The notes below the pieces were generated by a model, which searched no databases, was not told the DNA's origin, and worked only from the letters and a program-made list of their open reading frames with translations. From positions 1 through 5,329 of the forward strand of contig DAOOON010000025.1 in NCBI GenBank assembly GCA_035387745.1: a stretch of DNA of 5,329 bases. Direction: 5' to 3'. This DNA comes from an archaeon. Its GTDB lineage: Archaea; Iainarchaeota; Iainarchaeia; Iainarchaeales; CSSED10-239. This document shows positions 1 to 1,394 of this stretch, one piece after another; within the stretch, counting starts at the first letter, position 1, and each line of letters opens with the position of its first letter. Position numbers and translations under genes: made by a program.

Positions 1-1394
1 TCTTTGTGCTTTGGGTCTTTAGCATACTTGTGAATATCTATCTTTTTCTTGTATGCCTCACAAGCTTGGACTAGAGCCCTTGCTCCTGCTTCTGTGCCAT
101 CAGGATGAGCGTGAACTCCTGCGCCCATGGTTGTTATAAAATCAACTCCTCCCATAATTTCTATAAATGGTTTTAATAGAGTTGGATTTAAACCACCAGA
201 AATTATTGGAGCACATTTCTTTAGACCTCTCCAGGAGTCGTCTTCTAATATTCTTTTCTTGTTTTTGTCTTTCTTATTTAATTTTATAATATCTATATCC
301 TTCTGTGGTATTGTTGACCAAGACTGCTCAAAGAAATGTCCTTTTGCTGTAAAATTTAAAATATTATGTGCAGCAACAACATCTTCTTCTGGCGTTCCTG
401 CCATCTTTCCAACACCTGCAGTTCCTGTATGTATTCCGCTTGCCCCTGCAAGTCTTGCAAACTTAGAAAGCACTAATACTGAAAAACCAAAGACATTTTC
501 TGGTCTAGTATATGCACCATGTGATGCCCTATGGAAGTGAATAAACACATCAGGGTATTTTCTTCTTAGAGTCTGAACTGCCATCCAACCTGCAGTTATT
601 CCATCTATTAAGAATGCATAAGAACCTTTTTCAAAGCCTGCGCTTCTTATTAGCTCACATCTTTTTATCATGGTGTCAAAGTCAGAAGCAGAGACATTAA
701 AAGAATGGACCTTCTTATGGCCTGTTTTTTTAACTGCTTTATCCATTGCTTCTTTAACGTGTTTTACCATCTTGTCGTAAGGGCAGAAATCCTGGTCAGC
801 CTGTGGCTCATCATTCTTAACAAAGTCTCCTCCGCCTACCCAGAAGTCATAACACACTTCTGCATATTCTGCTGAGGTTAAGCCAATCTTTGGTTTAATA
901 ATTGTTCCAAGAATTGGTCTGTCATAAACTCCCAGATATTTTCTCATGTCATCAATTGTGTAGCTTGGGCCATCATATTGTTCAAGCATACTTGGTGGAA
1001 ACCACATGTCTAATAGCTTTAAAGCAGAAACTTCTTTCATGCCTAGAACATTACCCACAACATAAGTTAGAATATTTTGAACGTTTCCTCTTCTATCAAA
1101 TAGTCTCCAAGGATATGCAATCCATACTAGTTCGTTTTTAATATCCATCTTATAGACTAAAGCATTCATCTGTCTAGAAAATGGAGTTTCTGTTGTTACT
1201 GGAAAATTAGTTCCAGAAGAAGATTCTGCAGCAATCTCTGCTGCTGCTTGAAGAGTGTTTAGATTTTTTCCTGGTTTAAAATGGAAAACAGTTAGCATAT
1301 ACTCTCCATTATGTAATTGGCTATCTGTCATTTTAAGATTGACATAAGTCTTTTGTTTTTCATTTAAAGTTTTATATAAATCTCTTGAATTCAT
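1..1394 (-). CDS. rbcL: Ribulose-1,5-bisphosphate carboxylase/oxygenase large subunit, form II/III-like; partial, with the C-terminus running off the left window edge (464 codons visible)
   Basis: Absent from the ORF track because there is no stop codon in the window. My reverse-complement translation from the ATG at 1394 stays open to position 3: MNSRDLYKTLNEKQKTYVNLKMTDSQLHNGEYMLTVFHFKPGKNLNTLQAAAEIAAESSSGTNF...IAYPWRLFDRRGN... Catalytic motifs are all present. These are GTIIKPKIGL (aa163-172), GGDFVKNDEPQ (aa188-198; K193 at 816..818 is the carbamylated Lys position, D195/E196 the Mg ligands), HFHRASHGA (aa286-294), GASGIHTGTAGVGKMAG (loop-6 Lys K330), CAPIISGGLN and TMGAGVHAHPDG. It is collinear with Rhodospirillum rubrum form II CbbM as I recall it (RYVNL, AAESSTGTN, IAYP..LFDR, GTIIKPKLGL, FIKNDEPQ, HYHRAGHGA, GASGIHTGT, PIISGGMN). 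An AGGGAGGGAG Shine-Dalgarno sequence at 1401..1410 lies 6-9 nt upstream of the ATG at 1394. An in-frame ATG at 1400 abuts the SD and is less likely to be the start. Confidence 0.93.
   Translation of the reverse strand, partial: MNSRDLYKTLNEKQKTYVNLKMTDSQLHNGEYMLTVFHFKPGKNLNTLQAAAEIAAESSSGTNFPVTTETPFSRQMNALVYKMDIKNELVWIAYPWRLFDRRGNVQNILTYVVGNVLGMKEVSALKLLDMWFPPSMLEQYDGPSYTIDDMRKYLGVYDRPILGTIIKPKIGLTSAEYAEVCYDFWVGGGDFVKNDEPQADQDFCPYDKMVKHVKEAMDKAVKKTGHKKVHSFNVSASDFDTMIKRCELIRSAGFEKGSYAFLIDGITAGWMAVQTLRRKYPDVFIHFHRASHGAYTRPENVFGFSVLVLSKFARLAGASGIHTGTAGVGKMAGTPEEDVVAAHNILNFTAKGHFFEQSWSTIPQKDIDIIKLNKKDKNKKRILEDDSWRGLKKCAPIISGGLNPTLLKPFIEIMGGVDFITTMGAGVHAHPDGTEAGARALVQACEAYKKKIDIHKYAKDPKHK

Follow-up and report, generated by a model that had tools for sequence, protein, structure and literature searches.

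What form of RuBisCO is encoded at the edge of a short archaeal contig, and from where would this enzyme receive its ribulose-1,5-bisphosphate (RuBP)? The stretch of DNA analysed here (hereafter the window) is 5,329 nucleotides long and, as first described, AT-rich and compact, with a GC content of 0.322 and a coding fraction of 0.966. Its positions 1-1394, on the minus strand, encode the large subunit of a form II/III RuBisCO, which looks complete and is maintained by selection, and which comes from an AT-rich DPANN-type archaeon (Table 1). Taken as a whole, the data make it likely (probability of about 0.8) that this is a carbamylatable form II/III RuBisCO that carboxylates nucleotide-derived RuBP.

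Table 1. Positions of the RuBisCO gene, its motifs and its divergent neighbour in the window
Feature	Position	Strand	Remark
RuBisCO large subunit CDS, assigned to form II/III	1..1394	-	codons 1-464 of 488; the remaining 24 are past the left contig end
GAG, residues 424-426, second phosphate-binding glycine motif	117..125	-	alignment
SGG, residues 399-401, phosphate-binding	192..200	-	alignment
29-residue insertion, residues 361-389, equivalent of the MbR 'Rubisco assembly domain'	228..314	-	with lock residues D366 and D368 (291-299)
H322 (HTGT) and loop 6 K330 (GKM)	402..431	-	alignment; MbR Lys-330 (PMC5399129)
HFHRASHG, residues 286-293: H288, R289, H292	516..539	-	alignment
KNDEPQ, residues 193-198: K193 carbamylated activator Lys, D195 and E196 Mg2+ ligands	801..818	-	alignment; MbR Lys-193 (PMC5399129)
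Helix alpha-1 'lock-site' acidic residues E179, D183	846..860	-	MbR-identical numbering, conservation
KPK, K167-P168-K169	888..896	-	motif and alignment
N115, active-site Asn in VGNVLG	1050..1052	-	alignment
E57, T62, N63 in AAESSSGTN, N-domain active site	1206..1226	-	N63 is the form II state; W in forms I and III
Divergent intergenic region RuBisCO/NUDIX, 76 bp, A+T-rich	1395..1470	.	identical in four independent assemblies
Shine-Dalgarno-like GGGAGGGAG	1401..1409	-	6 nt 5' of the RuBisCO ATG at 1394; read from the sequence
Tandem NUDIX protein, 298 aa, divergent from RuBisCO	1471..2367	+	Pfam NUDIX E 6e-25, two stretches

The reverse strand of the region 1-1394 is translated over 464 codons without a stop, from an ATG at 1394-1392. 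A second in-frame ATG, at 1400-1398, is a less likely start because it abuts the Shine-Dalgarno-like run with zero spacer. The initial annotation had described the genome as using Shine-Dalgarno motifs, which holds in part: clear motifs of this kind are found at 3-4 of the 6 visible gene starts, but none precedes the NUDIX gene. The RuBisCO gene is the largest of the window, as reported, and it is indeed absent from the ORF track. This absence is however a contig-edge artefact and not a biological feature, since the ORF runs off the left contig end and such ORFs are not listed; public gene callers annotate it as 3..1394 on the minus strand, with 464 aa (L002 and L003). The missing C-terminus, whose recovery had been recommended, was obtained from another contig of this organism, 15 kb long (L001:1842-3308). 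The complete protein is 488 aa long and its 24-codon C-terminal tail beyond the window reads ELRRAIEFFERKKNKSQEKIKKKK. The full-length ORF is present on longer public contigs, and the locus occurs, near-identical, in at least nine public assemblies, one of which is an NCBI MAG. Compared with four relatives, the gene displays a dN/dS of 0.05-0.10, corresponding to strong purifying selection. Recent lateral transfer, which its higher GC might suggest, was considered and rejected, as its GC3 (0.25) lies inside the range of its neighbours (0.10-0.28).

We checked 19 catalytic or substrate-binding sites, and all of them are present (E57, T62, N63, N115, K167, K169, K193, D195, E196, H288, R289, H292, H322, K330, S399, G400, G401, G424 and G426). 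Among 81 relatives, these sites are invariant in every sequence having a residue at the column, with the exception of position 63 (N in 74 sequences, T in 5). They also agree with forms I, II and III, except at position 63, where N or W is found depending on the form, while representatives of the RuBisCO-like proteins (RLPs) differ at several of them. For instance, N115 is invariant in forms I, II and III and in 79 of the 81 relatives (the two others being gapped), whereas the RLP representatives carry E or G. Every motif named in the initial annotation was found (KPK, KNDEPQ, HFHRASHG, the loop-6 Lys, SGG and GAG). In the Methanococcoides burtonii enzyme (MbR), Lys-167 binds the CABP ligand and Ser-399 touches the P5 phosphate (PMC5399129). 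As read from the alignment, the protein thus has all the residues for carbamylation, Mg2+ binding, enolisation and carboxylation, and phosphate binding.

That the gene encodes a form IV RLP, or is a pseudogene in decay, with no carboxylase activity in either case, is the first alternative to be weighed, and the truncation of the reading frame by the contig edge is the only observation in its favour. This ORF is whole, with 488 aa, on longer contigs, and its low dN/dS is that of a maintained gene. Moreover, the catalytic columns are as in bona fide RuBisCOs, when the RLP representatives are substituted at positions 169, 289, 292, 322 and 330, and the RLP models (MtnW, OiaX or other) give 118-146 bits for cut-offs of 409-700. 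This alternative is therefore extremely improbable, and the exclusion of form IV that had been proposed from the motifs stands.

The form was assigned by combining profile, structure and tree comparisons. The protein matches the Pfam families RuBisCO_large (PF00016; E 1e-86) and RuBisCO_large_N (PF02788; E 2e-28). It scores 621 bits on the NCBIfam form II-type equivalog NF010002 (cut-off of 489) and 342 bits on the form III model rubisco_III (TIGR03326), under the cut-off of 497. Its best matches in the PDB, 8vgs (834 bits) and MbR (5mac; 815 bits), score far above form II (336 bits), form III (220 bits) and form I (about 190 bits), and the solved structures span the protein over nearly its whole length. 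More than 100 proteins from DPANN, methanogens and CPR share 79-96% identity with it, one of them being named 'RuBisCO long chain, Form II/III'. The enzymes of Methanolobus, Methanosalsum, DPANN, SR1 and Peregrinibacteria are 79-89% identical (about 79-80% for the Methanolobus and Methanosalsum orthologues), whereas identity drops to 44% with form II, to 36-38% with form III and to 27-30% with RLPs. In a neighbour-joining tree of 106 sequences, based on distances only and with clades labelled by curated NCBIfam HMMs, the form II/III clade that includes the window RuBisCO and its sister relationship to form II were each recovered in 200 of 200 bootstrap replicates. The protein falls outside the RLPs and outside the canonical proteobacterial form II, the two placements that the initial annotation had named as contrary to its reading. 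Tree, clade labels and best structural matches support its membership of form II/III, a group that Gunn et al. (2017; PMC5399129) named 'form IIIB'.

Could the gene nevertheless encode a common form II RuBisCO, from an autotroph with a Calvin cycle? Proteobacterial form II RuBisCO works with phosphoribulokinase (PRK) in the Calvin cycle. The enzymes of R. rubrum (9rub/5rub) and R. palustris (4lf1) belong to the sister clade, and they share with the window RuBisCO the backbone, N63 and a score above the form II-type cut-off. However, the identity between them is limited to 44%, canonical form II itself reaches 839 bits on the same model, and the window RuBisCO is placed in a separate clade and carries a II/III-specific insertion that proteobacterial form II does not have in full. 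In addition, neither the window nor a contig of 27 kb from its species contains any prk, cbb, small-subunit or carboxysome gene, which extends what had been noticed for the immediate surroundings; in particular, the upstream cbbP/prk gene and CBB operon that would have pointed to ordinary autotrophy are absent from these 27 kb. No Rfam or tRNA match was found anywhere in the window. The organism of origin is a DPANN-type archaeon, belonging to one of the groups that the initial annotation had named for such enzymes, and deoxyhypusine synthase, an archaeal marker, is encoded on the same contig as the RuBisCO. A Calvin-cycle form II is therefore very improbable.

The form II/III assignment is further illustrated by the assembly domain. 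The insertion equivalent to the Rubisco assembly domain, which has been described in PMC5399129 and PMC6389311, is present in 81 of the 81 relatives, and its columns hold 29 residues in the window RuBisCO, where forms I to IV have 3-15. The four lock residues (E179, D183, D366 and D368) are all present, with the same numbering as in MbR, and are almost invariant among relatives; in MbR, E179 and D183 coordinate an inter-dimer Mg2+ (PMC5399129). The match to MbR covers residues 4-462, with the same numbering past residue 27, and both proteins have K167, K193, K330 and S399 as well as the assembly domain at 361-389. They differ by a two-residue N-terminal indel, by the Lys-rich C-terminal tail of the window RuBisCO and by its more basic assembly-domain sequence (KLNKKDKNKKR); moreover, MbR comes from a methanogen and the window RuBisCO from a DPANN-type archaeon. 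The top structure match, 8vgs/9b6l ('Ribulose bisphosphate carboxylase'; E 3e-250), covers residues 2-462 including the insertion, and our literature search retrieved no paper on PDB 8vgs, 9b6l or 9dyp. By analogy with M. burtonii, the enzyme would function without a small subunit, its L2 dimers forming (L2)5 decamers on ligand binding.

The form II/III enzymes of other DPANN (Pacearchaeota, Woesearchaeota, Aenigmarchaeota, Micrarchaeota and Diapherotrites) and of CPR (SR1 and Peregrinibacteria) belong to the same clade and to the same insertion-bearing subtype, with invariant catalytic residues and 75-96% identity to the window RuBisCO, from which they show no material difference. The form III enzyme of Thermococcus kodakarensis (1geh, 3a12) likewise dispenses with a small subunit and assembles into (L2)5, as proposed here, and has the same proposed role, the carboxylation of nucleotide-derived RuBP, in the AMP (pentose-bisphosphate) pathway. 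It is however more distant, with a 220-bit match and 36-38% identity between the window RuBisCO and the representatives of the form III cluster, and it does not have the assembly-domain insertion.

Regarding function, close homologues with about 80% identity suggest that the enzyme would convert RuBP and CO2 into two 3-phosphoglycerate (3-PGA). MbR is catalytically competent (PMC5399129), and carboxylase activity has been demonstrated for one form II/III version, according to the summary given in PMC7300363. The RuBP would probably come from nucleotide ribose. Following the literature on the family, AMP phosphorylase would convert NMP into ribose-1,5-bisphosphate (R15P), from which R15P isomerase would form RuBP; this AMP pathway has been described for such RuBisCOs in DPANN and CPR (PMC6389311). 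The 3-PGA produced would enter lower glycolysis, and the enzyme would therefore serve ribose salvage, not autotrophy.

We searched for the genes of this pathway around the RuBisCO gene. No gene for AMP phosphorylase or for R15P isomerase turned up in the 27 kb available for the species. Across the 81 form II/III loci, a motif grep (a weak test) found no AMP phosphorylase near the RuBisCO, and clustering of the ORFs flanking form II/III loci yielded no recurrent family of either enzyme. The size-matched neighbours were identified by Pfam as UvrC, Fic, HD, ORF6N, methyltransferases and similar. A gene of the IF-2B family lies near the RuBisCO in 2 loci out of 81 only (L036 and L080), and for the protein of L036 the score on the R15P isomerase model TIGR00511 is 159 bits, below the cut-off of 314. 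This is the situation of the DPANN and CPR form II/III RuBisCOs studied by Jaffe et al. (2018; PMC6389311), where deoA (AMP phosphorylase) and e2b2 (R15P isomerase) are not adjacent to the RuBisCO gene; the two genes are less proximal to it for forms other than III-c (PMC6389311).

The same enzyme might instead receive its RuBP from PRK, which uses Ru5P and ATP, as part of an incomplete CBB cycle or of a route resembling the reductive hexulose-phosphate pathway. For CPR, routes assisted by PRK have already been suggested (PMC6389311). Phosphoribulokinase genes (311 and 304 bits, for an NCBI model cut-off of 236) also adjoin the form II/III RuBisCO in the related loci L037 and L049, at distances of 6 bp and 82 bp, respectively. 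The AMP route is therefore not the only possible source of RuBP in the clade. However, these two loci are the only ones out of 81 where PRK adjoins the RuBisCO, and no PRK-family gene is present in 27 kb of the species of the window. In its closest relatives, L009 and L093, the sole PRK-family match is weak (about 30% identity), uridine-kinase-sized (a 193-aa ORF in L009) and located about 6 kb away. For the window RuBisCO, a supply by PRK is thus quite improbable, and nucleotide ribose is still the preferred source. In two other MAGs, both archaeal, PRK occurs together with an NrtR-like regulator next to the form II/III RuBisCO gene.

The divergent neighbour of the RuBisCO gene could also take part in the pathway. 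The intergenic region that separates the two genes presumably holds two archaeal promoters. The neighbour encodes a tandem NUDIX protein, with a canonical Nudix box in domain 2 (GGVEKGESFEEAAIREAKEELNA) and a variant box in domain 1. Judging from the gene order, it is a clade-specific neighbour, with a putative functional link to the RuBisCO. The sub-clade of the window (L007, L008, L009 and L091-L095) differs from the other DPANN and CPR form II/III loci by its own synteny, NUDIX <-> RbcL -> p135. Searches of Pfam, NCBIfam and the PDB sequences gave no match for p135 (135 aa) or hyp240. In the sister species, a phosphatase of the phosphoglycerate-mutase superfamily is encoded at this locus.

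According to this alternative, the NUDIX protein would either use PRPP to produce R15P directly or convert ADP-ribose or other nucleoside diphosphate derivatives into AMP, and its product would bypass or feed AMP phosphorylase. A Nudix-hydrolase route from PRPP to R15P has been proposed for Thaumarchaeota without AMP phosphorylase. All four species-level relatives have retained the divergent pair, with 60-80 bp between the two genes, despite rearranged flanks and a dS of 0.75-1.1 between their RuBisCO genes and that of the window, and five metagenome loci have conserved it too. More broadly, 12 of the 81 loci have a true NUDIX gene at most 2 kb from the RuBisCO, a count that leaves out the unrelated NFACT-R family (Pfam), separated by alignment. 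The intact box of domain 2 speaks for this alternative, but the box is degenerate in two members of the clade (RIAKEE in L008 and RQAKEK in L009). The substrate is not readable from the sequence, as the protein has weak matches only, to NudB and Ap4A hydrolases, and a nearby Ham1 ITPase suggests housekeeping nucleotide sanitation instead. The reverse search retrieved eight homologues (47-53% identity) without a RuBisCO nearby, and the NUDIX proteins adjacent to other RuBisCOs are of different subfamilies (NrtR-type regulators or a NUDIX+NFACT-R pair). An involvement of the NUDIX protein in the RuBisCO pathway is therefore unlikely. The idea that NUDIX proteins are associated with form II/III RuBisCOs in general was rejected, since the reverse search shows the adjacency in a narrow clade only.

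A more specific version would be a lineage-specific module of this DPANN sub-clade, made of the RuBisCO, the divergent tandem NUDIX and the tightly coupled p135 (plus the phosphatase in sister species), in which the NUDIX protein would provide R15P by using PRPP, or AMP by using ADP-ribose or NDP-X. It is unlikely as well. If true, this module would provide genomic-linkage support for a Nudix-dependent, AMP-phosphorylase-independent route, hitherto hypothesised for Thaumarchaeota only.

The carbamylatable form II/III RuBisCO working on nucleotide-derived RuBP, the reading that we prefer, is not new as such: the enzyme class, its likely role in the use of nucleotide ribose and this exact gene are already known from databases and literature. 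Form II/III RuBisCO is well documented in DPANN (PMC6389311, PMC5399129), and because the exact locus is also already deposited and annotated, the interest given to it by the initial annotation was overstated. The window adds one sequence to a clade with hundreds of near-identical annotated DPANN form II/III RuBisCOs, whose close homologues include solved structures and one version with demonstrated activity. It also illustrates that a genuine RuBisCO can be recognised and correctly classified by a reader from its sequence alone. Its forward value lies in the clade-restricted NUDIX-RuBisCO-p135 arrangement and in the loci with PRK and an NrtR-like regulator, both of which point to a varied supply of RuBP, or a varied regulation, in these minimal organisms.

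The frame at the left end of the window runs for 464 codons without a stop on the reverse strand, with the translated N-terminus MNSRDLYKTLNEKQ. An alternative in-frame ATG two codons upstream of the start codon listed in the table is, from the sequence, the less likely start, because it touches the GGGAGGGAG run with no spacer. The initial annotation had noticed that this gene was absent from the ORF track. The gap is a contig-edge artefact: the ORF listing leaves out frames running off a contig end, and this frame exits the window at its left end. Public gene callers did call it on the same contig (3..1394, minus strand, 464 aa, RuBisCO Pfam domains). 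The window sequence is deposited as ENA contig ERZ761564 NODE_18893_length_5329, and further copies of the locus were found in NCBI MAG GCA_029560575.1, several JGI metagenomes, another ENA assembly and a 27 kb Logan contig. Over positions 1-1500, one synonymous base separates the window from the JGI and NCBI copies. The missing C-terminus, whose recovery had been proposed, was obtained from a 15 kb JGI contig of the same organism (L001); it adds 24 residues, for a full length of 488 aa.

Features of the RuBisCO locus and of related loci (L numbers denote loci; coordinates without one refer to the window)
Feature	Position	Strand	Remark
RuBisCO large subunit	1-1394	-	
RuBisCO start codon	ATG 1394-1392	-	read from the sequence
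GGGAGGGAG run	1401-1409	-	6 nt upstream of the RuBisCO ATG
RuBisCO-NUDIX spacer	1395-1470		76 bp, A+T-rich
Tandem NUDIX protein	1471-2367	+	divergent from RuBisCO
hyp240	2375-3097	-	no family match
hyp134	3104-3508	-	no family match
Ham1/RdgB ITPase	3573-4130	-	
DrrB-like ABC-2 permease	4142-4888	-	
ATPase of DrrB-like permease	4904-5329	-	cut by contig end
p135, 135-aa basic protein	L001:1431-1838	-	just left of the window
p135 in relatives	L007:11462-11866; L008:11474-11881; L093-L095		
Histidine-phosphatase gene	L008:11884-12498; L009:11911-12516; L007:11869-12117; L093-L095		
NUDIX + NFACT-R genes	L086:3358-4158; L048:11037-11922; L023, L027, L063		

Both RuBisCO large-chain domains were detected with Pfam. 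Among the NCBIfam models, the protein passes the form II-type equivalog (621 bits vs. a cut-off of 489) and reaches neither the form III model (342 vs. 497) nor the form I model (355 vs. 438), while the models for form IV RuBisCO-like proteins (RLPs) score far below their cut-offs (118-146 vs. 409-700). The PDB matches were 8vgs (834 bits), the Methanococcoides burtonii form II/III enzyme 5mac (815 bits), 9dyp (638 bits), proteobacterial form II (336 bits), Thermococcus kodakarensis form III (220 bits) and form I (about 190 bits). In a collection of 5.8 billion proteins, the best 120 matches share 79-100% identity with the query; their named sources are Pacearchaeota, Aenigmarchaeota, Diapherotrites, Altiarchaeota and Nanoarchaeota, and one of them carries the name "RuBisCO long chain, Form II/III". 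Eighty species-level genomes with relatives are mostly DPANN, the remainder being Methanolobus, Methanosalsum, Methanofastidiosum, SR1 and Peregrinibacteria.

For the phylogenetic placement suggested earlier, a neighbour-joining tree was built from the query, 12 named II/III sequences and 93 full-length superfamily representatives (50%-identity clusters), with clades labelled using curated NCBIfam models. The query falls inside the II/III clade (200/200 bootstraps), neither among the RLPs nor in canonical form II, of which the II/III clade is the sister (200/200). Over trimmed columns, its identity is 79-89% to form II/III, 44% to form II, 36-38% to form III, 33-34% to form I and 27-30% to RLPs. 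Three cluster representatives are unusually long (P0132 and P0133, 726-742 aa; P0145, 1265 aa), with a RuBisCO part beginning at about residue 320-450, and may be fusion proteins. For form III-c, RuBisCO-isomerase fusions were reported by Jaffe et al. (PMC6389311).

We checked 19 catalytic or substrate-binding positions (E57, T62, N63, N115, K167, K169, K193, D195, E196, H288, R289, H292, H322, K330, S399, G400, G401, G424 and G426; numbering identical to that of the M. burtonii enzyme), and all 19 residues were found in the query, as claimed for every catalytic residue class. Among relatives with a residue at the column, 18 of these positions never vary; the exception is position 63, with N in 74 relatives and T in 5. 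Forms I, II and III also agree at these 18 columns, apart from P0164, a form I representative that has gaps or substitutions at four of the C-terminal ones. Position 63 is form-specific, with N in the query and in form II and W in forms I and III. In the RLP representatives, substitutions occur at 169, 289, 292, 322, 330 and elsewhere. For residues beyond those named in PMC5399129, we take the roles to be those of established RuBisCO active-site knowledge (Tabita et al. 2008, on which PMC6389311 also draws). The query shares with the M. burtonii enzyme the active-site residues Lys-167, carbamylated Lys-193, Lys-330 and Ser-399, as well as the 29-residue "Rubisco assembly domain" at 361-389 (PMC5399129). 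This insertion occurs in 81/81 relatives, and the query accordingly belongs to the subgroup of II/III enzymes that Jaffe et al. define by the insertion (PMC6389311). The dN/dS against four relatives is 0.05-0.10. The analysis shows that this form II/III large subunit is intact and conserved and has the assembly domain, and every testable feature of the form is present: domains, clade, insertion, lock residues (E179, D183, D366, D368), catalytic set and no linked small subunit.

The window is AT-rich and compact, as described (GC 0.322, 96.6% coding). On a 27 kb contig from this species the locus continues in both directions: about 13 kb on the side of the NUDIX gene carry ThrRS, FtsZ, an AIRS-family protein, the archaeal marker deoxyhypusine synthase, CYTH and TspO, and about 5.5 kb beyond RuBisCO carry p135, a methyltransferase, PyrB, PyrI, a second methyltransferase, DUF362 and DUF2238. 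The search for a Calvin-cycle operon detected no prk (cbbP), cbb, small-subunit or carboxysome gene on this contig, in line with the initial annotation, and neither AMP phosphorylase nor ribose-1,5-bisphosphate (R15P) isomerase. The neighbouring proteins are labelled "[archaeon]" in NCBI (HOZ36020-HOZ36024). The catalytic residues, tree position, selection and gene context rule out an RLP or a pseudogene, and likewise an autotrophic form II. The higher GC of the RuBisCO gene (0.37 vs. 0.24-0.36 in its neighbours) reflects amino-acid composition; its GC3 (0.25) lies inside the neighbours' range (0.10-0.28), and L007-L009 show the same raised GC with locus-typical GC3. Recent transfer was rejected, as GC3 is typical for the locus and there is no compositional sign of it. 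Neither hyp240 (240 aa) nor hyp134 (134 aa) has a Pfam or NCBIfam match, nor hyp240 one in PDB; hyp240 (hypothetical in NCBI, PLK55_03495) is kept in L007, L009 and L093 (52-60% identity) and weakly in L074.

The NUDIX protein (298 aa) has two tandem domains, the second with a canonical Nudix box and the first with a variant box. Its divergent pairing with RuBisCO is kept in all close relatives (L007, L008, L009, L091-L095) although the flanks are rearranged, and a Nudix-catalysed step from PRPP to R15P has been hypothesised in the literature for Thaumarchaeota. A NUDIX-fed route to RuBP nevertheless appears unlikely: more distant homologues (47-53% identity) are not beside RuBisCO, the partner in L008 and L009 is single-domain with a degenerate box, and NUDIX genes found beside RuBisCO elsewhere fall into other subfamilies. 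We regard the pair as synteny confined to this clade, with little likelihood of a functional role. Several Woesearchaeota/Nanoarchaeota loci carry small NUDIX and NFACT-R RNA-binding-domain genes downstream of RuBisCO on the same strand, fused in L086 into one 266-aa ORF.

Supply of RuBP to the same RuBisCO by phosphoribulokinase (PRK) would find a precedent in two related loci from archaeal MAGs (L037:9213-12420 and L049:8882-12169), where a form II/III RuBisCO and a gene passing the NCBI PRK model NF005655 (311 and 304 bits vs. a cut-off of 236) are 6 bp and 82 bp apart, but with no such arrangement within the 27 kb we regard it as quite improbable here. Both loci also carry an NrtR-like regulator (NUDIX domain and winged helix) resembling an ADP-ribose-responsive repressor, and their gene content suggests that some lineages may have a PRK-fed, possibly ADP-ribose-regulated RuBisCO module. 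In L080, from an SR1 bacterium, an IF-2B family gene near RuBisCO (2262-3215) appears as two fragments under table 11. Such fragmentation would be expected if UGA is decoded as sense in this lineage, as it is in SR1.

The p135 gene begins 3-6 bp past the RuBisCO stop and is 70-82% identical across six loci of the clade; Pfam, NCBIfam and the PDB sequences yielded no match for it, and its co-transcription with RuBisCO is probable. In sister species, both are followed by a gene for a histidine phosphatase of about 200 aa (phosphoglycerate-mutase superfamily), which the species of the window lacks there (L001, L087). Its NCBIfam matches are ambiguous: PspA, CobC and archaeal dPGM each score under the cut-off. 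Among the genuine neighbours of form II/III RuBisCO across DPANN loci, the commonest is a cysteinyl-tRNA synthetase-like gene (e.g. L055:3546-4913), judged by eye from sequence motifs; it occurs in 22 of the 81 loci (L001, L007-L086) at a median distance of about 0.7 kb, probably as plain conserved synteny.

By analogy with homologues of about 80% identity, the enzyme would need no small subunit and would act as L2 dimers, which would join into (L2)5 through a Mg2+ lock on binding a six-carbon ligand, and would carboxylate RuBP to two 3-PGA (PMC5399129). The study in which form II/III activity was shown is reportedly that of Wrighton et al. in 2016. Following the family literature (PMC6389311), RuBP would derive from nucleotides via AMP phosphorylase and R15P isomerase, and 3-PGA would enter glycolysis. 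Genes for the two AMP-pathway enzymes almost never adjoin form II/III genes in the 81 related loci, which agrees with the tight linkage of both described mainly for form III-c (Jaffe et al., PMC6389311). The summary in PMC7300363 records that a form II/III enzyme has been shown elsewhere to be active. The initial observation is correct and its interpretation supported, and the proposed tree and operon checks gave the outcomes it foresaw. The finding is already known, since form II/III RuBisCO has been described in detail from DPANN and CPR (PMC6389311), its structure has been characterised (PMC5399129; PDB 5mac, 8vgs), and the locus is already deposited, with an annotated RuBisCO in JGI and annotated neighbours beside it in NCBI. 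The RuBisCO finding is therefore an ordinary one, and the value left lies in the side observations.
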